35,056 bases of DNA from a virus (lineage: Duplodnaviria; Heunggongvirae; Uroviricota; Caudoviricetes). The notes beneath the pieces were generated by a model. It ran no database searches, was not told the origin of the DNA, and saw only the letters and a program-made list of their open reading frames with translations. Numbering within the stretch: position 1 is the first letter of the stretch; the number at the start of each line of letters is the position of its first letter. The stretch lies in IMG/VR virus record IMGVR_UViG_2734482782_000004; one strand, 5' to 3'. Shown here in pieces: positions 6,516 to 30,944 of this stretch. Position numbers and translations under genes: made by a program.

Positions 6516-7034
6516 TCATAGGCCGATATTTCGGCGGTGTTGCTCCAGCCGGTCGACGCCGTTCACCTTCTCAATCATGTTGATGGTGTCGATTTCGACC
6601 AGCTCCTTACCGTCCATCGTCAGCCGGAAATAGGTGCAGACCACGGAGATTTTCGACTCGGTGTCTTCTCCTTGTTTACCCTCGCCGGTGTCGATTTCTT
6701 TCTGACGTCCACGCATGACCACTTCGACGGCCACCGTTTCGCCGGTATCGTCGCGCTGGTAAGAGCCTGCAAAACGAATCGGCACGGCATCCACACCGGT
6801 TGCGGCGTAAAGCTCCCAGATAACCGAATCCGGGAAGCCCCCGAGCGACCACTCCATTGACAGCGCATCGTCATCAAGGCCGAGGTCTACCGGTGCGCTG
6901 CCGTTCATCCCCGCACCGCGATAGTTTTCGAGTTTACGGGTCAGTTTTGGCAGCGTGACGGACTTTGCAACGCCCTGATAGCTGTAGCCGTTCAGAAAGA
7001 CGTTCATTAACTTGAGTTTGCGCGGCATTGCCAT
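6516..7034 (-). CDS. FII: Tail tube protein gpFII
   Basis: 172-aa ORF, P2 FII length and position. Confidence 0.85.
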   Translation of the reverse strand: MAMPRKLKLMNVFLNGYSYQGVAKSVTLPKLTRKLENYRGAGMNGSAPVDLGLDDDALSMEWSLGGFPDSVIWELYAATGVDAVPIRFAGSYQRDDTGETVAVEVVMRGRQKEIDTGEGKQGEDTESKISVVCTYFRLTMDGKELVEIDTINMIEKVNGVDRLEQHRRNIGL

Positions 7035-7046
7035 CGGTCAGGCTCC

Positions 7047-8237
7047 TTAATTGCTGTTAACCGAGGTGACCAGATTTGCCAGGTATTTATCGGTAATACG
7101 CTGGCGCAGGGTCAGGTTTTCAAGAGGAGGAACCGGGGTATAGTCGTAGTCGATATACAGTTTTCCGGCCTTAAGGGTTTCCGCATCGTTGGATTCTTCG
7201 CTGAACCAGCAGGTCGCATCCACGATATAGCCGTTTGTTTTCAGCTCACGAAATTTGGCATTGATGCCGTCAACGATGTCGCGAATCAGCGTTGCGGTGA
7301 TGGGCTTGTCCACCGCCCACATGTGCGCCTCAGCCATCGTGTCGGCCAGCACCTGCGCGGTGCGGGTGTAGTTTTCAAAGAGGAACAGCGGGTCATCGGA
7401 GCAGGTACGGTTACCCCAGAAGCGGAAACCGTCGCGGCGAATCAGCGTAGTGACGCCTGACTCGTTAAGCAGGTCAGCATCGGTGCCGGACTCCTGCAAA
7501 TCCCAGAATACAGAGGCACTGATGCCGGTAACACCGTTTACCCCGACATTGGACAGCGTTTTATGCCAGCCCTGCTCCTGGTCGATTTTAGCGCGCAGAC
7601 CCAGCGCACGGGCGGTGGCATACGCGGTGGCGGTGGTACTGGTGACCGTATCCCATGCGAGGAAATCAGGCCAGATGACCATCAGCTCACGCTGGCTGAA
7701 ATTCTGGCGGTAGGCTTTCACCTCGGAAATGGTCTTACAGCCCCATGCGCTGATATATCCGAAAGCGCGCAGCTTCTGACAGACTGATGCCAGTGCAACA
7801 GCCACCTCTTTGGTGTCCAGTCCCGGCACGCCGAGAATACGCGGTTTAACACCGGTTACCGACTCCGCCGCCAGCAGGGCTTTCAGTCCGGTGTACTGGC
7901 CGTTTTCGTCGGTGGTGCCGATGATATTGGAAACGGTCTGCGCAAGTTTCGTTTCTTCGTCTTCGCCGGTGCCGTCTTCCACACGTACAACAACGGTGAC
8001 TGGTTTTGACTGGTCAGCGATGGCCTGCAACGACGCCGCCAGCGTGCCTTTTTTACCGGCCTTTGCAATTGCGCTCTGCACATTGGTAATCAGCACAGGT
8101 TTATTGAGGGGAAAGGTTTCCGCATCCGCATCGCTGGCCGTGCAGACCATGCCGACAATGGCAGTGGATACGGTGGAAATGACGCGGGTGCCGTCGTTAA
8201 TCTCCAGCACCTGCACGCCGTGATGATAGTCACTCAT
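7047..8237 (-). CDS. FI: Contractile tail sheath protein gpFI
   Basis: 396-aa ORF, P2 FI length and position; GGAG ribosome-binding site upstream of the ATG. Confidence 0.85.
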   Translation of the reverse strand: MSDYHHGVQVLEINDGTRVISTVSTAIVGMVCTASDADAETFPLNKPVLITNVQSAIAKAGKKGTLAASLQAIADQSKPVTVVVRVEDGTGEDEETKLAQTVSNIIGTTDENGQYTGLKALLAAESVTGVKPRILGVPGLDTKEVAVALASVCQKLRAFGYISAWGCKTISEVKAYRQNFSQRELMVIWPDFLAWDTVTSTTATAYATARALGLRAKIDQEQGWHKTLSNVGVNGVTGISASVFWDLQESGTDADLLNESGVTTLIRRDGFRFWGNRTCSDDPLFLFENYTRTAQVLADTMAEAHMWAVDKPITATLIRDIVDGINAKFRELKTNGYIVDATCWFSEESNDAETLKAGKLYIDYDYTPVPPLENLTLRQRITDKYLANLVTSVNSN

Positions 8238-8333
8238 CCGTTTAACTCCGTGGTTAATGGGTGCAACTATTTTCTGTTGTGCAGAGCATGAGACGCTATT
8301 TGACCTGGCTGGTCAGGGGATGAAACAACAGAT

Positions 8334-8359
8334 AAAGAAAATGCGGGCAATTCGCCCGC
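8334..8359 (-). terminator. Rho-independent terminator separating the cargo locus from the FI late promoter region
   Basis: Hairpin gcgggc-aatt-gcccgc (8343..8359) followed on the minus strand by attttcttt. Confidence 0.45.
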
Positions 8360-8517
8360 CTGTCCTGATTTGTACTCACTCATTTTCCGCCTGACAATTT
8401 ACATAGCCCAAATGCTATCAAATCTGACAGTCTGCTTTGAGCGAGGAGCGGACATTGAGCTTGGTCTCAAGTATGCTGATTTTTTTTAGCTAATATCTTG
8501 GTTTTTTGATCAATAGG

Positions 8518-8547
8518 TTGCTGGTCAGCCCTAGGATCAGATATAAA
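8518..8547 (+). promoter_or_regulatory. Candidate sigma70 promoter for the HNH-like cargo gene
   Basis: TTGCTG (8518..8523), 18-bp spacer, TATAAA (8542..8547), about 55 bp upstream of the ATG at 8603; read by eye only. Confidence 0.3.
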
Positions 8548-8602
8548 AAGTATGATTTTATTCTCCCCACATAGATGAAAAAAACAAAGAAGCATAACTT
8601 TT

Positions 8603-9355
8603 ATGACCAAGACAAATAGGCACAACTTTCCTCCAAGCGTTGTAGGTAAGGTAGCAGAGCGCGCTGCATATATTTGTAGCAATCCCTCTTGTCATAGGGT
8701 AACAATCGGCCCGGATCAATTGGCGGAAAATCTTTCTATCAAGACGGGTGAGGCGGCGCATATCTGCGCGGCGAGCCCTGGCGGACCGCGCTATGACATG
8801 TCTCAGTCAGAAACAGAGCGGAAGAGCATAAAAAATGCTATATGGTTGTGCGGAGCTTGTGCTGATTTAGTTGATAAGAATGGCGGTATGGGCTACCCCG
8901 CCGAGTATTTGCGAAAATGGAAACGTGACCACGAATCACTAATGAAGGAGTGCTTGGAGGGAGGAAAGAGGCTAATTTTTCAATTTCTATCGCATCGCCC
9001 AGACGAGAAAATTGCTCTGCGGGTGATCCATTTATTGGAAGACAAGAGTTCTCTTTATCTGCCATATGCTCAAGAGGATCCAGCACGAGTCTCGGATTCT
9101 TTGAAGGAGCTCCGACTCTCTCTTACGGCGATTCGCTCCGAGATTGCACCTGAGTCTCCGCTATCGTTGATCGTCGAGTCAATTGTCCGTGCGTGCCGAC
9201 ACTATATGAATTCAACGCCAGATCGGCCGGGCATTGATGAGCTTAACTTCTCCCTCGGCGCAGTTCGTAAGGTAGTAGGAATTAACATCGGAGAACTATT
9301 GAAACACTATGAAATCCAGGTGAGTCACGAATTGCATTCTATTATTCCTAAATGA
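8603..9355 (+). CDS. Cargo protein with N-terminal HNH-like nuclease motif and a C-terminal domain of unknown function (candidate defence effector)
   Basis: 250-aa ORF in AT-rich DNA at the Z/fun position; residues 25-93 read C-x4-C-H ... GEAAHICAASPGG ... N-x4-LCGAC ... DKN, resembling the HNH beta-beta-alpha-Me fold with a Cys4 zinc knuckle; own terminator at 9378..9412. Confidence 0.6.
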   Translation: MTKTNRHNFPPSVVGKVAERAAYICSNPSCHRVTIGPDQLAENLSIKTGEAAHICAASPGGPRYDMSQSETERKSIKNAIWLCGACADLVDKNGGMGYPAEYLRKWKRDHESLMKECLEGGKRLIFQFLSHRPDEKIALRVIHLLEDKSSLYLPYAQEDPARVSDSLKELRLSLTAIRSEIAPESPLSLIVESIVRACRHYMNSTPDRPGIDELNFSLGAVRKVVGINIGELLKHYEIQVSHELHSIIPK

Positions 9356-9377
9356 ATTTTAACCAATAACTCAAGTT

Positions 9378-9412
9378 GGCGAAGCCTGAAAAAGATGAGC
9401 TTCGCCATTTTT
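9378..9412 (+). terminator. Rho-independent terminator after the HNH-like gene
   Basis: Hairpin ggcgaagc-(13 nt)-gcttcgcc followed by attttt. Confidence 0.6.
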
Positions 9413-9516
9413 CTCGGACCTTGAGTAATTAGTGCAGACACAATAAGCATATTGTTTTCGAGTGCACGACGAACGTAGTTTTCGATACTTTGAGTATTAT
9501 AGCTTCAACTTTTTAC

Positions 9517-10302
9517 TTACATCAAAAATAACTTACAATATTTGTAAGTTGCTTTGTGTACGAAAATGCTTGCGTCAACTCTTGACATCGGATTTTTTAA
9601 TATCCCTCCGGAACTTCCCTTTCCATGTCTCGCAAGATACCCTAACAGTTCAAAGCTATTAGCAGTGCCCGTGAATCTGCTGATTTCCTTTTCATCAATA
9701 TTAAAAGCCATGCTAATTACTTTATCTCTCTGATATTTCTTGCCTTTATAAGTGTCGGGAAAATTTAGTATACCTTTCACATATTTATCATATACATATT
9801 CTCTAATTGTTTCCCACAAACGATAAAGATTAACCCAATCATCACCTAAGGCACACATACCTAAAACAACACGTAAGGATTCATGTTTAGATGATAAATT
9901 AATTAATCGTGAAAAATTATCAGCGCGAGGGTGTGGTTGCTGTATGTCATGGAAATTAAAGGGGTTTACCTGAGTTACATCCATTGATTTAAAGCCGCAT
10001 ATTTCCGAGTAATTAATGCCTTCACTTCCAGAAATAGAAAGAGGACCAAAAGATTGATATCTTTCAAAACCATAAAGAACGCTAAGTGCGCCGTTCATGA
10101 GCATCAACAAACCTTTTAACTTGGAAGCCAATTCATTTGGGTCGGATATGATATTCAAATGAGGAGATGAAAGTAAATGAATATCTGTTTGCCCTAAATC
10201 AGAGTCAGAATCATCATTTATAGAGAAATCATTCGACCAAACTCCACATAATCTTTTAACAAATCCTGTAGATGGAGTAAGTAAAAAACTATAATCGTAC
10301 AT
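9517..10302 (-). CDS. Hypothetical cargo protein, 261 aa, no recognisable motif
   Basis: Long ORF in strongly AT-rich DNA, where chance ORFs of this length are unlikely; ATG at 10300..10302 preceded by GAGGGA about 8 nt upstream; convergent with the HNH-like gene. Confidence 0.55.
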   Translation of the reverse strand: MYDYSFLLTPSTGFVKRLCGVWSNDFSINDDSDSDLGQTDIHLLSSPHLNIISDPNELASKLKGLLMLMNGALSVLYGFERYQSFGPLSISGSEGINYSEICGFKSMDVTQVNPFNFHDIQQPHPRADNFSRLINLSSKHESLRVVLGMCALGDDWVNLYRLWETIREYVYDKYVKGILNFPDTYKGKKYQRDKVISMAFNIDEKEISRFTGTANSFELLGYLARHGKGSSGGILKNPMSRVDASIFVHKATYKYCKLFLM

Positions 10303-10456
10303 AACTCAAATCCCTCTTTTTTATATCCTAAATGGAATACAAAAATTATTGTTTATTTGTTATGTTCAATATACTCACATAACCGAAAACTTTAACACGC
10401 TCATTCTAAGTGAACTAAATCTAAAGATATACCTTTGAAAACTGAAAACTCAATGC

Positions 10457-10487
10457 TGGCAACGTCCGCTCCTGGCACAAAGCGAAC
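10457..10487. repeat. 31-bp imperfect direct repeat, copy A (27/31 identical to copy B)
   Basis: tggcaacgtccgctcctggcacaaagcgaac here versus tggcaatgtctgctcctggcacagagcggac at 11820..11850. Confidence 0.7.
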
Positions 10488-10551
10488 ATTCCTTGACGTC
10501 CTGTCAGGGAAACCCACCTGGACGTTCAGGTGATTCTGTCGATTATAGTCA

Positions 10552-10577
10552 TAAAAAAGCCGCCCCGGAGGGACGGC
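10552..10577 (-). terminator. Strong rho-independent terminator of the 227-aa membrane-protein gene
   Basis: Minus-strand GC-rich hairpin gccgtccc-tcc-ggggcggc followed by TTTTTTAT, about 80 nt downstream of the stop at 10657. Confidence 0.7.
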
Positions 10578-10656
10578 TATAAACTCGCCAGTTAACAAGC
10601 TGATTTTACCGCTTACGCGGTTCTGTCGTTGCGGTGTTCGCTGACCCACTGCGCCT

Positions 10657-11340
10657 TTACAGTTTATCGCTTATGAATCCATGAGCCTTAAATGTCCTGA
10701 CAAAATCCTCATAGCGCGCAATCATCCCCCCCGATGTTTCACGCACATTTTGCTGATGAAAGCGGAAGTTTGCCTCCGATTCAACACTCTTACTCTTCCA
10801 GTCATGGGGAAGGCTTAGCATCACTGGCTTTCTGTTCGGGTAATCAACACTCATAAATGGTAGCGTACTATCTACGTATGCGGTCATAGCGTCCAAAAAA
10901 GCGTCTTTCGCACCATTCACTTCAGTATTGAATAACCGATACTTTTCACCGCTAAATTTTTCAGCTTTTTCAATGTTTAAGCAAACATCTTGCCGTATAC
11001 CGCTCAGGTAGCTCTGCTCAACCCATTGAGTAGTATCCTCATAAGGCAGCAATTCAAGGATCTGGTCGATTATCTTCAGATCATGTTCATCTTGCTTTTT
11101 TTTTACAGGGTCCTCAGTAGATTCATTGGATGTGTGGTAAACGTTGGTGGTCTGATTAATATCCCGCCCGGCCTGGTTCACATCACCCTCGGTTTTCTTT
11201 GCCTTCTGTTTTATGTTGTTTTGCTGTCTGATTCTATATGTAACACCGCCCCCAATACCAAACAGTGCCAGTACGCCGACTAATAAGCTAAGATAGGTAG
11301 CTGCGTCTGCACCAAAATGTGCATTAAGCCATTCAGTCAT
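10657..11340 (-). CDS. Cargo membrane-anchored protein, 227 aa (N-terminal TM helix, then soluble domain); candidate single-gene defence or abortive-infection effector
   Basis: ORF with hydrophobic segment AATYLSLLVGVLALFGIGGGV at residues about 12-33; own extended -10 promoter and own terminator; AAGGA ribosome-binding site. Confidence 0.6.
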   Translation of the reverse strand: MTEWLNAHFGADAATYLSLLVGVLALFGIGGGVTYRIRQQNNIKQKAKKTEGDVNQAGRDINQTTNVYHTSNESTEDPVKKKQDEHDLKIIDQILELLPYEDTTQWVEQSYLSGIRQDVCLNIEKAEKFSGEKYRLFNTEVNGAKDAFLDAMTAYVDSTLPFMSVDYPNRKPVMLSLPHDWKSKSVESEANFRFHQQNVRETSGGMIARYEDFVRTFKAHGFISDKL

Positions 11341-11370
11341 TTGAACTATGTCCTTACAGTGTGAGTAAAG

Positions 11371-11400
11371 ATTATAATAACAGAGCTAACTTGCGCAGAA
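11371..11400 (-). promoter_or_regulatory. Candidate extended -10 sigma70 promoter of the 227-aa gene
   Basis: Minus-strand reads ttctgcgcaagttagctctgTtattataat: TGnTATTAT / TATAAT element with a weak -35; lies immediately downstream of the terminator at 11403..11433. Confidence 0.45.
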
Positions 11401-11402
11401 AC

Positions 11403-11433
11403 GAAAAAAGGCAGGGGAGGTAACCCCCCTGCC
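11403..11433 (-). terminator. Rho-independent terminator, probable end of the tail-fibre late transcript
   Basis: Minus-strand hairpin ggcagggg-(loop)-cccctgcc (11410..11433) followed by TTTTTTCGTTT. Confidence 0.65.
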
Positions 11434-11819
11434 TTTAATCAAGTTCCTCCATCCCTTACGGGCGTCCGGTCAGTTGCTTGATGGCAACCAGACCAGCTAG
11501 CATTATTTGCATCACCAGTAAGACTGTTGTTAGCGTTATCACTTCGACGTCTCCTCTTCCAGGAGAGCGCCACACGTAGTAAGTGCTTTTGGTTCTACCC
11601 GCCCCCCTCACTCCGCATCCATTAGTTAGCAGGTACAAGCAGCACTCTTTCGTGTGGTAAGCCAACAGGACAGCACTGGACTGACGCCTTGAGCTTTAAT
11701 ATTTCCTTCCGATCCATACAACTAGGTCTGTTAAAAGCCCCTAGGACGAATTCTACAGAGATGGCTATGGTGCAGGTTTCGGCTATAGGGCTCTTTGATG
11801 TAATCGAGGGTCATAACGT

Positions 11820-11850
11820 TGGCAATGTCTGCTCCTGGCACAGAGCGGAC
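11820..11850. repeat. 31-bp imperfect direct repeat, copy B, just 3' of gene G
   Basis: See copy A; copy B overlaps the left arm of a 10-bp-stem hairpin (11836..11877, tggcacagag / ctctgtgcca) lying 22 nt downstream of the G stop. Confidence 0.7.
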
Positions 11851-11899
11851 TGTCAGATTAGGCTTTACTCTGTGCCATAGATATGTAAGCTAATACAAC

Positions 11900-12427
11900 T
11901 TATTGCGGCATTTCCGGCCATTCAGGATTTGCAGGATCCACACGACTGATCAGAACGCTGTAGCGTTCCCATGATTCCAGTCGGCTACGCTCCTCATCTG
12001 TTGCCATGTTCAGTCTGACCGCGCGCTCCAGCGGCAAAATCACGGATTCAGCATCTGCAAGAAGTCTGGCTTTCCGAATTTCTGCCTGCTGCTGTAATTC
12101 CTCTGCCGTATAAATGCGTTTAATCACTTTGCCGTCCTTAAACATCCAGTTCCCTGAAATGTCCGCCCGTCGGTTAGCAGTAATATCCGCCACTTCAACA
12201 ACACTTAATCCATCCGGTCTGATAGCTGTCACATCCTTTTCCACATAGTGGATGATATTATCTTTGTCGTACGCTATTTTTATCGTGTCATCAGCAAAAT
12301 ACTTTTGTTCTTCGTACCAGTTCTTACCATCTTCTGAAAAAAACCAGACAACATCAAAGTCCTTTGTCAATTGATATTGTTCAACCGTTTTTGGATTACC
12401 CGCCGTAATATTTTTTAAATGCTGCAT
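11900..12427 (-). CDS. G: Tail fibre assembly chaperone gpG
   Basis: 175-aa ORF immediately downstream of H, P2 G length. Confidence 0.8.
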
Positions 12428-16126: not shown

Positions 16127-16474
16127 TCAACTCACAGGGATGGTTAACGAAAGTGGCTGGCCGGTGTCGTTGTGCTGGCCGGTTAACGTGACCGTCATTC
16201 GCCCGTCAAAACTGCGCTCAGTGGTGACGGATGACAGGGTGACGCGGGGTTCCCATTTCAGTACCGCCATGTAACAGGCGACCTTAATCTGCAACTCAAG
16301 CGCCGGGGTCTGCGGCTGGTCAATCATTGACGCCAGCAACGAGCCGTAATCACGACGCATCACCCGTGAGCCGACCGGTGTGCGCAGGATATCGCCGATA
16401 CTCTGGCTGATATGCTCAAGGTCAGTGACCGTCAGGCCATCACTGCGATTCATTCCGAGATAACGCGCTGTCAT
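16127..16474 (-). CDS. W: Baseplate protein gpW
   Basis: 115-aa ORF, P2 W length and position. Confidence 0.8.
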   Translation of the reverse strand: MTARYLGMNRSDGLTVTDLEHISQSIGDILRTPVGSRVMRRDYGSLLASMIDQPQTPALELQIKVACYMAVLKWEPRVTLSSVTTERSFDGRMTVTLTGQHNDTGQPLSLTIPVS

Positions 16475-17100
16475 AGAGGACTCCCGGTTTTGCCGCCGCT
16501 GTCGCCGGGGTGTTTATGGGTATGCAGTACCTTCCCGTTTGATGAAAGTTCACCGCCGGTGTGTTCAATGTTGCCGCGCATCGTCCCGCCCTTCTGCACT
16601 TCCAGCGTGCCGGTAATCAGCTTGTTGGTGCAGACCACCTCCGGTGTGTCCAGGGTGACGCGGGTTGATGCTTTCACCATGACCACCGGCACCGTGGCAG
16701 TAACAGAATCAGAAGCCGTCACGCTGGCCGTTTTAATTCCGCTTACCGTGAGTGCACTGGTTTCAGGTTCATACTCAATCACCGCCCCGTCAGGGAAACG
16801 GATATGCAGGGCATCCGCCGACGCCGACGGCGCGGGGTTATCGCCGGAATAAATCCCCGGCAGAACAAACGCCGTGTCAAGTTCACCGCCCACGGCCAGA
16901 ATCAGCACCTGTTCCCCCACGGAAGGTGCCCACCATGTGCGCGAACGACCGGCGCGATGGGTCAGCCACTGAAGCCAGTCGGTGCACATGCCGCCGGTCT
17001 GCACACGGCAGCGACCGGCATTAAGGTCGGTTTCGACGATAATGCCAGTGCGAATCATATTGCGTATAAAGCGAAGAATTTCATTGTATTGTGCATTCAT
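16471..17100 (-). CDS. V: Baseplate spike protein gpV
   Basis: 209-aa product from the internal ATG (MNAQYNEILRFIRNMIRTGIIVETDLNAGR...); the longer track ORF begins at an upstream alternative start inside cargo DNA. Confidence 0.8.
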   Translation of the reverse strand: MNAQYNEILRFIRNMIRTGIIVETDLNAGRCRVQTGGMCTDWLQWLTHRAGRSRTWWAPSVGEQVLILAVGGELDTAFVLPGIYSGDNPAPSASADALHIRFPDGAVIEYEPETSALTVSGIKTASVTASDSVTATVPVVMVKASTRVTLDTPEVVCTNKLITGTLEVQKGGTMRGNIEHTGGELSSNGKVLHTHKHPGDSGGKTGSPL

Positions 17101-17186
17101 TCGATAATAATGATTCTGTACAATCTCGAAGTAAATCACACCACGATTTCTGGTGCACAGAACAACAAGGGACAACAAAATCCATT

Positions 17187-18260
17187 ATGAGTACTTACTT
17201 TTTCTCGTCAGAAACAATGAAAGAATTGTTCAAAGATTATCTGGTCTTTTTGAACACGCTGACTCCCAGCACAAACTTTGAATCAAACAGAAACAAAATA
17301 ATTGCTCAAGCAATAAACTTCATTTCCGAAAACCCTGAAGATTGGGACAAAAAATCCCAGTACAACATTGCTATGATTGGCGACACCTTTAAAAGTTTCT
17401 TAAGAGAAAAGGGAGAAGATAACAACAGCATCAACCTTATATTCACTTGCTTTTTTAGATTTATCATTGAACCAAGCATTCTCTCTCCGGAAATAGAGTC
17501 TCACTTTTCACCACTAAGAACCATCAAGGATTTTGCTCTGTATAACTATAATGAATTCGATGAGCGGAGCAGAGCACAGATAGACTTTTCTCTTAGAGAA
17601 CTGCCATTAGCAATGGTTAAAGAAGTTTTAAGCTCCAGCAATGTTGACACATATAAAAAATACATTGATAGTTTAAACGAAGGGCGTCAATTTTTCGAAA
17701 AGTGCGACTCCTTCTTAAAGGAGCAACATGCCAAAATAGAGTCAATTAAAGAGTCATTAAAAGGGTATGAGGTCGCATTTAATTTTGTTGGACTGTTTGA
17801 AGGCTTTAATTCACTTGGCAAAAAGAAAGAAAGTGAAATCATGCTATCAAGAATAATTCTTATCATCTTGGCTATAATCATTCCCTCCCCGCTGATATAC
17901 TATGGAATGCATAAATTACCAGCTCTCGAAACGACAAATGCTGCCACATATTTTATGTCAGCACTACCTTTTGCATCAGTTACATTGATTTTCATGTATT
18001 ACTTTAGAGTTGTACTGCTAAATCATATATCGTTACGAACTCAGATTATGCAAATAGAACTCAGAAAGAGCCTTTGTCAGTTCATTCAGAGTTATAGCGA
18101 CTATTCCTCAGAGATAAGGAAAAACAATCCGGAAGCGCTTTCAAAATTCGAAGACGTAGTATTTTCAAACATCATGCTATCCGATGATAAGATACCATCT
18201 ACATTTGATGGCATTGAGCAAATAGCATCGTTAATCAATTCATTAAAAAATGGAAAGTAA
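17187..18260 (+). CDS. Cargo membrane protein, 357 aa (soluble N-domain of about 215 aa, two TM helices, C-terminal tail of about 80 aa), at the S-V junction (P2 orf30 position)
   Basis: AT-rich ORF opposite in strand to the tail genes; ATG at 17187 with AAGGGA 14 nt upstream (the next ATG is at 17217); hydrophobic segments IMLSRIILIILAIIIPSPLIYYG and AATYFMSALPFASVTLIFMYYFRVVLL; followed by a bidirectional terminator. Confidence 0.6.
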   Translation: MSTYFFSSETMKELFKDYLVFLNTLTPSTNFESNRNKIIAQAINFISENPEDWDKKSQYNIAMIGDTFKSFLREKGEDNNSINLIFTCFFRFIIEPSILSPEIESHFSPLRTIKDFALYNYNEFDERSRAQIDFSLRELPLAMVKEVLSSSNVDTYKKYIDSLNEGRQFFEKCDSFLKEQHAKIESIKESLKGYEVAFNFVGLFEGFNSLGKKKESEIMLSRIILIILAIIIPSPLIYYGMHKLPALETTNAATYFMSALPFASVTLIFMYYFRVVLLNHISLRTQIMQIELRKSLCQFIQSYSDYSSEIRKNNPEALSKFEDVVFSNIMLSDDKIPSTFDGIEQIASLINSLKNGK

Positions 18261-18362: not shown

Positions 18363-18815
18363 CTAACGATTCAGGTGAGCCAGGATAATCTCTTCAATCA
18401 TCTGCACATCCTCACCGGTAAAGCCGAGCAGAGGACGCGCCGGATAATCAATTTTCTTACCGTCTTTCCGGGTTTCTTCCGACAGACCGAACTGATGCAC
18501 ACTGGCGATTTTCGGTGACTTCCCGCCGTAAAACTCCATTGCTGCCTGTTCAGGGCTGGCGCGGATATGCAAAAAACGACTGGTGATAAGTTTCGCAAAC
18601 ATTTTTCGCTTAACGCGACCGGTCTTTTTTCTGGCGCTCTGCTGCTGGCGTGGTGCGTAGGGTGTGCCGTCCGGGGCTTTCTGTGCCATCACCCGGCGCT
18701 GCTGACTCTGCCGCAGACGTTTCGCCAGTTCGGCGCTCAGTCGCCGACGCCCTGACGGTGACAGCGATTCAATAAGTCCGGTCAGCCGGTCTTCAAAACG
18801 CTTAAACTCATTCAT
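18363..18815 (-). CDS. S: Tail completion protein gpS
   Basis: 150-aa ORF, P2 S length and position. Confidence 0.8.
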   Translation of the reverse strand: MNEFKRFEDRLTGLIESLSPSGRRRLSAELAKRLRQSQQRRVMAQKAPDGTPYAPRQQQSARKKTGRVKRKMFAKLITSRFLHIRASPEQAAMEFYGGKSPKIASVHQFGLSEETRKDGKKIDYPARPLLGFTGEDVQMIEEIILAHLNR

Positions 18816-27543: not shown

Positions 27544-27548
27544 ACATC

Positions 27549-27570
27549 GCCGCCTGCGGGCGGCTTTTTT
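27549..27570 (+). terminator. Rho-independent terminator after Q
   Basis: Hairpin gccgcc-tgcg-ggcggc followed by TTTTTT. Confidence 0.7.
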
Positions 27571-27712
27571 ACAACCCGCCATCACGCCCTCACACGCTCA
27601 CCACCGCACAAAACAGCCCGCAGACACACCAACGCCCCGGCGAACAATCTAAACGCCATCACGACGCGCTCAGACGCTGAAAAAATAAAATCAGCACCAC
27701 CGCCAGCGCGCA

Positions 27713-27731
27713 GTGCTTTCCCCGCCTCGCC
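27713..27731. other. cos cohesive-end site (19 nt)
   Basis: gtgctttccccgcctcgcc is the reverse complement of the P2 cohesive end GGCGAGGCGGGGAAAGCAC as I recall it; it sits between Q and the replication genes, as expected for a prophage. Confidence 0.75.
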
Positions 27732-28015
27732 CGCCCGCTTCACAGGGCGGTTTTAATGCAGTTGCATAGATACTATGGATCCGCACCAGTCCTGACCGCA
27801 CGCAGCCTGAACGGACATCCCCAACGCATGCAAAAACATTCACTTGTTGCATGCATAGCTTTTTAAGTACGCCATACCGCAACTGTACATTTTTAAGCAA
27901 TTGGCAACTTTAAAAAATTTACATTGCTTTCAAGACCTTATCATCCGTAGTCTCTGTTTTTTACTTTGAGCTACATCAATAAAATCTCAAACATGTTTAA
28001 TGCAAAGCCCTTGTT

Positions 28016-28069
28016 ACACAACATAGAATGTATGTCTAGAAACAACGACATACTATATGTTGTGTTTTT
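28016..28069 (+). terminator. Long imperfect hairpin (10-bp outer plus 7-bp inner stem) followed by a T-tract; candidate terminator, attenuator or structured RNA
   Basis: acacaacata (28016..28025) pairs with tatgttgtgt (28056..28065); inner gtatgtc / gacatac; followed by TTTT. Confidence 0.4.
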
Positions 28070-28209
28070 CCGGCTCTCTGTTCGGTGATATGCCAAATCA
28101 CTTTGCGTTTAAACAGAGCATTATTTCAGGGCAAGACTTCGCTCAAAAGTCATTCCACCTAAGAAGCGCATATACCGGTGGAAGTTGCCCTCTACTTACA
28201 GGAGGCAAT

Positions 28210-28323
28210 ATGAAGAAATGCTATTACTGCATTCTCGTTCTGGCCCTCTTTGGCTATCCAAACGGTAGTCCGAGTGGTTTGTCAGTAAACGTCAGTAATA
28301 TCAATGTCAGCATTATGCTTTAA
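28210..28323 (+). CDS. Candidate small hydrophobic peptide (37 aa) in the tin/old-position cargo region
   Basis: ATG at 28210 preceded by consensus AGGAGG (28200..28205); product MKKCYYCILVLALFGYPNGSPSGLSVNVSNINVSIML; followed by a bidirectional terminator; flanked by 15-bp direct repeats. Confidence 0.35.
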   Translation: MKKCYYCILVLALFGYPNGSPSGLSVNVSNINVSIML

Positions 28324-28340
28324 TATGCTTCAAACAAAAA

Positions 28341-28365
28341 AACCACCTGCCAGGGTGGTTTTTTT
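28341..28365. terminator. Bidirectional rho-independent terminator
   Basis: Hairpin aaccacc-tgccag-ggtggtt with T-tract downstream and A-tract upstream. Confidence 0.65.
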
Positions 28366-28625
28366 GCGCCCATCATCAATACGATGAAAGACTGACAAGA
28401 CTTCGCTCAAGACGAATTATGCGTCGACATAAGGTTACCCGCAATGATTTTATTAGACTAAATGGATGGCCTTTTATGACCCGGATCAAACGGCTGTCCT
28501 TACCGACATGCTAGTCACTCAATAGCATTTAGCCTTCTAATTCAGCATGCTATTGACCTTCTGCTGCCCCATAACTGCTCCGCATAAGCCATTCAATGCC
28601 ATATCAAATTACGTTGTGTTTTTAC

Positions 28626-30944
28626 TCAAATGGGTAACGAGAACCCCGGCCACTCATCAGCGACCGGATATCTGAATTTTTTCCCGTCATAATTTACGGT
28701 TGCCCCACGCGCCAGCGCCTCAATCTCCCATCGCTGCGGCCTGATACCGTTCTGAGCAAGGTCAACGCGGATACGGGTAATTTGCGTTCGTTCCGACCGG
28801 GTCAGTCTGGCCGATGGCGCTATTTCATGTGGTTTTAACAGGCTTCCGTTTCTCTGCTGACGATTTGGTGTTCTCAGTCCGTGTTTTAATGCACCTCTGA
28901 GCGCCCTCACGACCTCTGGCTCATTCCATTCGATAACACCGTCATCAACCAGATTAAGCACGGCTGCGGCATGTTCAGAAGGTGTGGGAGCCGGTAACGA
29001 AGTATCACCACCGGTGAGCTTTCCACAGTTATTGACAGGACTCCGAGGCGCGGCGATGCCGCTTTTTAAAGTCAAAGGCTCAACGACCGGAACTTTCGGC
29101 ACAATGCGCCAGTCCGTCGTTCTGGTGATATGAATATGACGCGCGCCGAGATGCGGCGCGTAAATGCCGACCACCCTCTCGACCTCTTCCTCGTACTCGT
29201 TAACGTCATCCGACGGGCTACGGGCGACCCTGACAGTCTGACAATCGCGCGGGACATTTGCCCCACCCTGCGCGCTGATATACAACGCAAAATCACCACT
29301 GTCTGCGGCGGCGCGTGCAGCCTCGACGCGCTCGTCAAACTCATCAGCAATGCTGACGCCGCGCGGCAATTTGCGTAGTTCACGGTAAGCCCCCATTGTC
29401 GGCAGACCAACCGTTTTAAATTGCGGGATGCGCCACGTTGACGCCCATGCGGTAACAGCCGCAGCAGTGTCTTTCAGCGGCCTGCCGGTATCGTTATCGA
29501 GCTGACCATCCAGTGCATAGCCGTCGATGTTTTTTGAGATGTATTTCGCGATATACCCCGCAGCACCGCCCCGGTTAAGGTGTTTTGCCTGAAAACGGTT
29601 TCGCGCGGCTCCTCTTTCGTCGCCATCCTCTTTGAGCGCATAGCGACGCATGATTTCGATAATCTGGTTACGCTGGCGCGGATTACAAAAAAGCATCATA
29701 TGCCAGTGCGGCGTTCCGTCGTGGTGTGGCTCGACGACACGCAAACCGTAGACCTGTAAATCATTATCCTTGAATGCCGTGCGCATCAGGCTCCAGATAC
29801 GGCAGAGATAACGCTGCGCATCCTTTGGATTAAATGCCTCATCGTTCCAGCCGTGATTTAGCTGGACGGTTTTACTTTCGCCTTTTCTGACCTGACGTGT
29901 CGGGTGATACTTTGACGGCGCGGTCAGCGTGATAAACATCCCCACATCACCCTCTGCTGCGGCGTAACGCTCAATACCGGCAATGGTGTTCATCATCTCC
30001 ATCCGGCGAATTTCAGGATTAGAAATACTGCCCATCACCTTACTGATAAGGTCGATGCGCTCGCCGGTTTCCCTGTTTTCAAGGTCACACGATTTAAGAA
30101 ATTCCAGATTTGCCTGGCGGCGCGCACGCACATCACGAATGGCGTGTTTACTGGCATAAGGAGAACGGTCTTTATTGACCTCCCCGACAGCTATCAGTAA
30201 CGCTTCATGCCAGCGCATACGCTGGCCTTTAAGCTGATGAGTCCACCACTCATCGTTAAACAGACGGGCAATGGCAGAATATGCCTGCCTCGTGGTCATC
30301 TGTCCTTTACGGTATTTTTTCCAGTAGAGAGGGGAAATATTGAAAGCTCGTGCAGCGCCAGCAACATGACCATACAGGTGAGCCTGAGCCTCATCCATAA
30401 ACAGTGATTCTTTTTCGCCATGCGCATCCACCCAGGCATCGCTGAGTTCCTCATACATCATGAAAAGCTGTGATGAGATACGGGCGGCAAACTTTTTCAG
30501 CTCCTTGTCATTCATTCCAGGCAAACGCGCATAATGGTCACGCTCTGCCAGAAACAGCAACGACGCGTCGGTGTTCATTTCATGGCGCTGATTCACACGC
30601 TCAATGCGCGGCCATAAACGACGCTGAAAAGTGGATGTGAGGAAATAAAACCCGTGCACCGGGCTTTTATTGCGCCGGATGTAGTCATAGCGTGAAGTAA
30701 ACAGCGAGCGCAAAAAATAAGGCAGGCGGTTAATCGTGGATAAAACACCTTGCACCTGACGCATCTCGTCACGTGTAAGAGGTCTTTCGCGCCCGACAGC
30801 CTCGCGTGGCGCGTTCCATGCATAAGCACCGGTAAACGTCTTACCGGTGCCTGCGGTAAATGCTGACGGAGGGACAAAACGCCCGGAGGCTTTAACGGCC
30901 ATATGAGCCAAAAGCCTCTGAACAACGCTTGCTGAGTTGCTCAA
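28626..30944 (-). CDS. A: Replication initiation protein gpA (rolling-circle nickase)
   Basis: 772-aa ORF, P2 A size class (761 aa by memory) and position; exact start uncertain. Confidence 0.8.
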   Translation of the reverse strand: MSNSASVVQRLLAHMAVKASGRFVPPSAFTAGTGKTFTGAYAWNAPREAVGRERPLTRDEMRQVQGVLSTINRLPYFLRSLFTSRYDYIRRNKSPVHGFYFLTSTFQRRLWPRIERVNQRHEMNTDASLLFLAERDHYARLPGMNDKELKKFAARISSQLFMMYEELSDAWVDAHGEKESLFMDEAQAHLYGHVAGAARAFNISPLYWKKYRKGQMTTRQAYSAIARLFNDEWWTHQLKGQRMRWHEALLIAVGEVNKDRSPYASKHAIRDVRARRQANLEFLKSCDLENRETGERIDLISKVMGSISNPEIRRMEMMNTIAGIERYAAAEGDVGMFITLTAPSKYHPTRQVRKGESKTVQLNHGWNDEAFNPKDAQRYLCRIWSLMRTAFKDNDLQVYGLRVVEPHHDGTPHWHMMLFCNPRQRNQIIEIMRRYALKEDGDERGAARNRFQAKHLNRGGAAGYIAKYISKNIDGYALDGQLDNDTGRPLKDTAAAVTAWASTWRIPQFKTVGLPTMGAYRELRKLPRGVSIADEFDERVEAARAAADSGDFALYISAQGGANVPRDCQTVRVARSPSDDVNEYEEEVERVVGIYAPHLGARHIHITRTTDWRIVPKVPVVEPLTLKSGIAAPRSPVNNCGKLTGGDTSLPAPTPSEHAAAVLNLVDDGVIEWNEPEVVRALRGALKHGLRTPNRQQRNGSLLKPHEIAPSARLTRSERTQITRIRVDLAQNGIRPQRWEIEALARGATVNYDGKKFRYPVADEWPGFSLPI

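Follow-up and report, generated by a model that had tools for sequence, protein, structure and literature searches.

The 35,056-nucleotide stretch of DNA analysed here (IMG/VR virus record IMGVR_UViG_2734482782_000004; its whole length is called the window) is an intact Escherichia coli prophage of the P2 type (Peduovirus), with a host U32-peptidase gene at its left flank. From the left the genes follow the order ogr, D, U, T, E, FII, FI, cargo, G, H, I, J, W and V, and beyond V the P2 order continues with lysis and head genes, A, cox, C and int. The cargo is a block of lower GC content (about 0.40 versus about 0.55 in its flanks) that holds three genes, which we name A, B and C independently of the P2 genes of the same letters. 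This text concerns the first of them, gene A, whose predicted product of 250 amino acids (aa) joins an HNH nuclease module to a DUF6650 domain. The features considered are the following.

6516-7034: FII, P2 gene.
7047-8237: FI, P2 tail-sheath gene.
8238..11899, no strand assigned: low-GC cargo block of 3.7 kb, a variable slot running from FI to G.
8603..9355, plus strand: gene A, HNH-DUF6650 protein of 250 aa (open reading frame and its translation, ATG start).
8627..8959, plus strand: HNH module of A, residues ~9-119, of the Cap5/SPARHA immune-effector subtype, with the Cys4 knuckle C25/C30/C83/C86.
8963..9352, plus strand: DUF6650 (ThsG-type) helical domain of A, residues ~121-250, the proposed sensor/oligomerisation module.
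9378..9412, plus strand: terminator-like hairpin just 3' of A, GGCGAAGC...GCTTCGCC, then ATTTTT (predicted fold).
9517..10302, minus strand: gene B, 261 aa, tail-to-tail neighbour of A; it is the DefensePredictor gene 'HEP3', or DS-29.
10657..11340, minus strand: gene C, 227 aa, with a hydrophobic N-terminal stretch (by eye a transmembrane (TM) helix).
11900-12427: G, P2 tail-fibre assembly gene.

A sequence-only reading of this DNA had described the open reading frame (ORF) at 8603-9355 as a nuclease-like protein, and translation reproduces the 250-aa ORF together with every motif and residue number that had been listed: C25-x4-C30-H31, G49-E-A-A-H53-I-C-A-A-S-P-G-G61, N78, L82-C83-G-A-C86 and A87-D-L-V-D91-K-N93. 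In an alignment of 28 homologues from Proteobacteria, Bacteroidota and Verrucomicrobiota, which are 47-85% identical, C25, C30, H53, N78, C83, C86, D91, K92 and N93 are invariant. Homologues of A amount to 454 matches across many phyla, nearly all of them about 250 aa long, and this uniformity of the family shows that gene A is a real and conserved gene. Scans of the protein against Pfam and NCBIfam returned nothing usable; the RefSeq name of a 99%-identical copy is 'DUF6650 family protein'. Concerning transcription, the stem of the hairpin that follows A is kept in the Klebsiella copy of the gene, and a consensus terminator scanner misses this hairpin because its loop is too long. The best promoter-like match of the region lies at 9496-9525 on the minus strand (TTGATG-18-TATAAT, 10/12, a consensus match only), at the 3' end of B and antisense into gene A.

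For the N-terminal half of the protein, every PADLOC match was confined to the HNH segment: the best was PDC-M68A (E 3.8e-24), and CBASS HNH effectors (E 4e-20), SAVED-HNH (5e-19) and a variant of SduA (Shedu; 3e-9) were also matched. The matches to SAVED-HNH models and structures end at about residue 120 of A, so that the remainder of the protein does not correspond to SAVED. Compared with solved structures, a profile of the A family matched best the SPARHA HNH effector 9om4 (E 6.9e-14), identified as such through PMC12738770, including its N-terminal C-x4-C zinc ligands, and it also matched the Cap5 structures 8ysq, 7rwk, 7rwm and 8fm1 (E 4e-9 to 5e-4). In the alignment with PsCap5, whose active site has been described (PMC12141522), H53 corresponds to the general base His56, N78 to Asn82 and C83/C86 to Cys87/Cys90; the earlier proposal of H53 as the candidate catalytic histidine agrees with this position and with its invariance. 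As for the two Mg2+ ligands of PsCap5 (PMC12141522), D91 retains Asp95 and A87 stands in place of His91, so that of the metal-ligand pair of Cap5-SPARHA HNH modules the Asp is kept and the His is gone. C25-x4-C30 aligns with the C-x4-C of 9om4 and 8ysq and completes a Cys4 zinc site, which is of the CCCH type in some relatives of A; zinc is bound by Cys/His in this HNH subtype (PMC12738770). The Cys4-knuckle HNH suggested from the letters is thus borne out by the four invariant cysteines and by the profile matches to 9om4 and to the Cap5 structures, and A has the general-base His, the structural Asn and the zinc knuckle (C-x4-C plus C-x2-C/H) of this group. Judged by these matches, the HNH of A is of the immune-effector subtype found in Cap5, SPARHA and some Shedu proteins, and a beta-beta-alpha-Me fold is predicted for it from its profile matches to solved structures.

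The C-terminal half had been described as helical, which the AlphaFold2 (AF2) model supports (pLDDT 84-95 for residues ~130-250), and as free of recognisable motifs, which did not hold, as it corresponds to DUF6650. The current Pfam model, PF20355.3, recognises it weakly with hmmscan (4 of 28 family members, best E 7e-4) despite the RefSeq label and a precomputed PF20355 match on every homologue of A listed, and direct profile tests were therefore run. When 1.84 billion representatives were searched with a profile of residues 121-250, 826 clusters were retrieved, 210 of them at E<=1e-10; most of the matches are proteins of ~155-175 aa with little beyond that domain, and seven stand-alone matches score 57-71 bits on PF20355 (cutoff 27). 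The reciprocal profile, built from 79 stand-alone proteins, matches residues 130-250 of A (E 7e-32), and hhalign of the domain of A with stand-alone DUF6650 gives a probability of 100% (E 7e-42, 120 columns). The two share the signature E158, S166, R171, T175, A197, C198, R199, L218, R222, G226 and P249. By profile comparison, then, the C-terminal half of A is a DUF6650 domain, and the Pfam PF20355 seed evidently under-represents the HNH-fused branch. Among the top 150 representatives of the domain, 31 are HNH fusions and a few carry TM helices. Since DUF6650 is found joined to HNH, TM helices and SMEK alike, it behaves like a module that can be moved between proteins, which argues that it senses and assembles while the attached part kills.

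DUF6650 is the effector domain (ThsG) of type VI Thoeris, described in a December 2025 preprint as a combination of TIR and DUF6650 (bioRxiv 10.64898/2025.12.03.692087). According to that work the TIR protein produces 2'-cyclic ADP-ribose (2'cADPR) upon infection, ThsG responds specifically to this molecule, and added 2'cADPR halts cells carrying the system. The preprint states that ThsG has no resemblance to any known domain; AlphaFold 3 models it as a tube-shaped hexamer in which neighbouring protomers have basic pockets between them. TM helices are present in some ThsG, and the toxicity of those without them is called 'unclear'. The effectors of the five defending type VI systems are given as 'DUF6650' or 'DUF6650 and TM', and HNH is nowhere mentioned (10.64898/2025.12.03.692087). 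In A the arginines R171, R199 and R222 are conserved and would be compatible with basic inter-protomer pockets of the ThsG type.

We also searched for partners of gene A. A genome scan yielded 21 loci with full-length relatives of A in at least six phyla, and A is the sole gene common to all of them. Neither tblastn nor profile search found homologues of B and C at 19 distant A loci, no TIR was found among the accessory ORFs of the window or in 10 ORFs immediately adjoining relatives of A, and no CD-NTase gene lies near A, whose neighbours are P2 tail genes, B and C, without PADLOC or Pfam matches. Gene A therefore stands alone, without a conserved partner. The neighbourhoods of its relatives are rich in integrases, transposases and defence genes, the latter including Lamassu, PARIS AriA, MADS, AbiL, Avs3, Shedu, restriction-modification, BREX and STAND NTPase genes. 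Enterobacterial relatives (54-56% identity) occur as lone opposite-strand morons between the antiterminator Q and holin genes of lambdoid prophages. The Klebsiella copies of A (96.8%) and B (89%) are likewise arranged tail-to-tail, ~160 bp apart, and recur in this form in three or more unrelated contexts, from which C is missing. Two genes off the A-B pair of one of these loci (L076:4117-4899; order TIR, SRAP, B, A) there is a gene for a 260-aa TIR_2/ThsB-like protein, which is missing from the otherwise identical locus L078; its proximity may be a coincidence, or it may be an occasional signalling partner.

The closest known systems share one of the two modules of A. Cap5, the HNH-SAVED effector of CBASS (7rwk, 7rwm, 8fm1, 8ysq, 9dif), has the same HNH subtype, with a common layout of N-terminal helix, G-x-A-H general-base strand, GPR loop, Asn, C-x-x-C, I-D and W/K-x-DHE helix, and like A it has an N-terminal HNH effector and a C-terminal sensor, presumably following a similar logic of oligomerisation. 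A differs from it by DUF6650 in the place of SAVED, the domain that binds a cyclic oligonucleotide in Cap5, by the absence of a nearby CD-NTase, by its length (250 aa versus ~385 aa) and by the replacement of His91 by Ala; since it has neither SAVED nor a CD-NTase neighbour, it falls outside Cap5. With type VI Thoeris ThsG it shares DUF6650 and the conserved polar residues, as well as anti-phage contexts in E. coli and in many phyla, but it has no adjoining TIR/ThsB gene, and its HNH nuclease is not described for ThsG; because there is no TIR, A is outside type VI Thoeris as well. SPARHA HNH-APAZ (9om4; PMC12738770), the best solved-structure match of the HNH, has as its sensor a short Argonaute/APAZ complex guided by nucleic acids, whereas A has no Argonaute and carries DUF6650 instead. 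PDC-M68A resembles A in its HNH match and overall length (a 253-position profile), but only profile positions 5-113 align, so that the C-terminal halves differ or are too divergent; our literature search found nothing on the function of PDC-M68.

The 'SMEK' protein DS-27 (WP_087896215.1) is a single-gene E. coli defence system validated experimentally in the DefensePredictor work (Science 2026, PMC13092281), with DUF6650 at its C-terminal residues 169-292. It is like A in being a single-gene protein with C-terminal DUF6650 and unlike it in having SMEK_N rather than HNH at the N-terminus; moreover DS-27 is validated, whereas A is predicted. The SMEK protein that phage vB_EcoM-12474III carries in its G-FI slot was considered as a bridge between A and DS-27 and was rejected: it has no similarity to A, and Pfam finds in it only SMEK_N. 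The fusion of HNH and DUF6650 was not described in the literature searched on DUF6650 or on P2/P4 hotspots. A thus brings two known defence modules together in a new way and has no partner; machine learning had earlier listed the protein among predicted defence genes, in generic terms only. Proteins with the HNH-DUF6650 architecture occur often (31 of the top 150 representatives of the domain; about 450 close family members), are encoded by single genes and are TIR-less.

On the whole, we consider it reasonably probable that gene A is a stand-alone, trigger-activated anti-phage nuclease gene, acting by abortive infection or superinfection exclusion and carried as prophage cargo. The domain identities, the conservation of the residues, the lack of a conserved partner and the defence and mobile context of the family are shown by the data, and DefensePredictor assigns the protein (WP_059356353.1, contig NZ_RRWI01000012.1) to its class of predicted novel defence genes, with mean log-odds of 5.5. 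The sequence-only reading had arrived at a nuclease effector with a C-terminal sensor, of the single-gene abortive-infection type, which the HNH subtype, DUF6650 and the partner-less loci support.

Nuclease activity, activation by oligomerisation and the nature of the trigger are what we infer, from two precedents. The HNH of Cap5 (PMC12141522) and that of SPARHA (PMC12738770) are silent until the sensor part drives higher-order assembly, as a tetramer or filament, which gives composite active sites. In A, the N-terminal HNH would be the DNA-degrading effector, silent before the trigger, and DUF6650 would take the role of SAVED or APAZ as a sensing and oligomerising platform. By homology with ThsG, its ligand would probably be a small signal of the nucleotide type, or some other cue of infection, bound in a pocket that is lined with arginines and lies between the protomers of a ring; upon binding, DUF6650 would assemble or rearrange and the HNH domains would be juxtaposed. 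These would cut DNA non-specifically, with the consequence that phage replication stops and the infection is aborted. Neither a TIR nor another signal synthase is linked to A, and the trigger could be 2'cADPR or a related molecule supplied in trans, or a cue sensed directly. A tentative extension, to which we assign a low probability, is that DUF6650 is a portable receptor and HNH-DUF6650 a partner-less receptor-nuclease, either eavesdropping on TIR-derived cADPR-isomer signals that unlinked enzymes of host or phage supply in trans or sensing its cue directly without a synthase. If this were true, Thoeris-type receptor domains would be uncoupled from TIR signalling, and it would suggest how TM-less ThsG work, with DUF6650 sensing and assembling and a separate module killing. 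Being single-gene and TIR-less, HNH-DUF6650 proteins would be a simple system for finding the DUF6650 ligand and for testing a Thoeris-type receptor without synthase.

Several observations weigh against a stand-alone defence nuclease. At position 87, where the earlier reading had noticed that the usual final His is missing, the 120 close relatives listed have Ala (63) or Ser (57) and never His. In AcaSPARHA the double substitution N71A/H80A of predicted catalytic HNH residues abolishes activity (PMC12738770), H80 being at most a possible counterpart of A87. The AF2 model built from the 28-sequence alignment has pLDDT <50 over residues 1-98, that is, the HNH half. The DefensePredictor score of A is moderate and variable (standard deviation 3.5, minimum -1.4), and the protein is not in the DefensePredictor table of tested systems. 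A promoter scan found no consensus sigma-70 promoter upstream of A, a scan that is uninformative here, as the region holds fewer consensus sites than shuffled controls. Concerning DUF6650, profile-profile comparison of the domain of A with TIR-linked TM-type ThsG-like effectors (Listeria, Priestia and Lactiplantibacillus relatives of the E. coli ACN001 system) found no similarity, and these effectors are themselves peripheral to the DUF6650 profile (E 3e-7 to 0.02); for this reason the link of A to characterised ThsG is, as far as profiles go, at the level of the Pfam family only. A TIR neighbour, meant as a positive control, was found in 0 of 4 sampled stand-alone DUF6650 genes, and one such gene lies within a 2-oxoacid dehydrogenase operon (E1, E1-beta, E2, DUF6650, E3).

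Other observations on stand-alone DUF6650 genes and on type VI loci can be added here. The Pfam-positive stand-alone genes on a metagenome contig (L083:4001-4486) and at L090, L092 and L093 are not reliably linked to Thoeris; one stand-alone gene lies amid PemK and MNT/HepT toxin-antitoxin genes and another after a pentapeptide-repeat protein. Following the TIR partner of type VI in E. coli led to a degraded plasmid locus, and the loci reached from a second TIR cluster were for the most part of the caspase type (type IV Thoeris).

A first alternative is that A is an orphan Thoeris-type receptor, a ThsG-like effector whose signal, 2'cADPR or a similar TIR product, would come in trans from a TIR protein encoded at another place in the host or on a different mobile element, so that the prophage would eavesdrop on the immune signalling of its host; we regard this as unlikely. 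It would fit with the specific response of type VI DUF6650 effectors to 2'cADPR, with the presence of type VI systems in E. coli strains S1 and ACN001, with the conserved Arg/Glu/Ser/Cys set of DUF6650 that A retains and with the TIR gene near the Klebsiella A-B locus L076. The same TIR gene, however, is not in L078, neither the accessory ORFs of the window nor the individually scanned adjoining ORFs of relatives contain a TIR, the domain of A has no detectable similarity to the TIR-linked TM-type effectors, and an effector needing an unlinked synthase would be useless in most of the hosts that a phage enters.

It could also be proposed that A and B form a two-gene system, with B as sensor, regulator or immunity factor of the nuclease. 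The tail-to-tail arrangement with its spacer is indeed kept in the Klebsiella contexts mentioned above and in all E. coli contexts, while C is dispensable. However, B was defensive alone in the DefensePredictor assay, relatives of A in 19 other species and in lambdoid prophages have no B homologue even by profile search, and distant homologues of B (44%) have a DUF2971 protein and an ORF of 165 aa as their neighbours, and no DUF6650 protein in the vicinity. Moreover, the two genes point towards each other and a terminator-like hairpin of its own follows A, so that they are not co-transcribed. We therefore think it quite unlikely that A depends on B and treat a functional link as a minor rival to the reading that A and B are single-gene systems, independent of each other, which move together as a mini-island: B travels with A in Enterobacterales, and the wider family of A does without B.

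The replacement of the Mg2+-ligand His by A87 could mean that the HNH is catalytically impaired and that A is a DNA binder, or a signal sponge or decoy acting for the phage as anti-defence; phage sponges of TIR signals are known (Tad1 and Tad2, cited from the work of 10.64898/2025.12.03.692087), and A is phage-borne. A dead site is hard to square with the invariance of H53, N78, D91 and the Cys4 knuckle across phyla, and the A family is also common in chromosomal defence islands. The residue at position 87 is His in 8 of 23 more distant HNH-DUF6650 representatives, and in 50 proteins with the same HNH and other C-terminal domains, most of which are Cap5-sized (370-440 aa), Ala, Gly or Ser prevails over His (42 versus 7); a residue other than His is thus common in this HNH clade. 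Among the His-less sequences, 98% have Asn or Asp at position 93, versus 72% of those where His is present, a comparison in which many sequences are related and hence not independent, and N93 would be compatible with a replacement metal ligand. Single-ligand His-Me sites are active in Serratia nuclease and in I-PpoI, and for this reason the nuclease competence of A is plausible. Loss of catalysis appears to us very improbable, and A would be a natural Cap5-type HNH without the canonical Mg-binding His, useful for the study of catalytic plasticity in His-Me nucleases.

The homing endonuclease that the sequence-only reading had offered as its alternative, a selfish gene cutting cognate sites that lack it, can be practically dismissed: it is suggested by the presence of an HNH ORF in a phage, in the reverse orientation to its neighbours, and by a marginal match to the phage HNH family phrog_740 (E 0.0045), but the HNH subtype is that of immune effectors, domain scans found no NUMOD, IENR or AP2-type DNA-binding domains in A, the C-terminal half belongs to DUF6650, members of the family are widely distributed among the defence islands of bacteria, and A lies not within or beside a conserved target gene but in cargo slots that hold other genes in other P2 phages, moving in a multi-gene block into non-phage islands.

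A defence role of gene A, the reading that we prefer, is set in a block that itself appears in the DefensePredictor tables (NZ_RRWI01000012.1), in which B was cloned alone and found defensive (PMC13092281). In Table S6 of that work B is the coding sequence 2077-2862, WP_061089765.1, defensive TRUE, DS-29. The AF2 model of B is confident (pLDDT 85), Foldseek gives no solved-structure match, and its invariant motifs are DWVNLYR and FTGTxNSFE..G...RHG. The possibility that B is a hidden TIR or signal synthase was considered and rejected, since it has no Pfam or PADLOC match and no fold match in the PDB and it defends alone. Gene C is also a predicted novel defence gene (DefensePredictor mean log-odds 5.3) and is not in the tested table. 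No more than 16 homologues of it were found, some of them in Vibrio and Pseudoalteromonas (36-39% identity), and it has no family matches; it accompanies A and B in E. coli and is missing from the Klebsiella A-B loci, and we take it to be a bystander in the cargo block. We rejected the idea that it is a TM-DUF6650 ThsG, its E value with the DUF6650 profile being 0.07, and the profile of 79 stand-alone DUF6650 proteins matched neither B nor C. Of the three genes in the G-FI slot of this prophage, B is thus validated for defence, A is a strong candidate and C is predicted to be defensive. An 82-aa ORF at 10401-10649 is probably not a gene, because a strong terminator-like hairpin (10578-10558) lies inside it.

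Known P2-like phages align only to the edges of the cargo block, and some of them carry different cargo in the G-FI slot, such as a SMEK-domain protein that was not shown to carry DUF6650. We take this slot to be the position of the P2 Z/fun gene. The whole A-B-C block is present in 15 of 5426 complete E. coli genomes, and copies at least 99.4% identical also occur in a chromosomal island with YeeP-GTPase and Ag43, beside hsdM or integrase/IS1; the mobile unit that carries gene A is thus a 3.4-kb multi-gene block, inserted into non-phage islands too.

P2 hotspots are known reservoirs of defence genes (PMC9122126, PMC13586616), and the hotspot of Rousset et al. 2022 is A-Q (old/tin) and not G-FI (PMC9122126). 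In the window this classical gpQ-gpA hotspot (27544-28626) is almost empty, with just ORFs of at most 88 aa, and the accessory genes lie in the G-FI slot (A-C) and at 17091-18260 rather than there. The latter is a 389-aa ORF on the plus strand, opposite to the flanking tail genes V (16471-17178) and S (18363-18815); it forms an islet of 36.5% GC, has no Pfam match and only one match overall (phrog_9373, of unknown function), and looks like a second cargo slot of the prophage. In a P2 context the block occurs in just one further E. coli genome, that of E. coli cM2a (NZ_CM176588.1 1664941-1674602), where G is followed by a pseudogene fragment and then by the host genes yegR/yegS, and this prophage appears to be a truncated, domesticated remnant that keeps its defence cargo.

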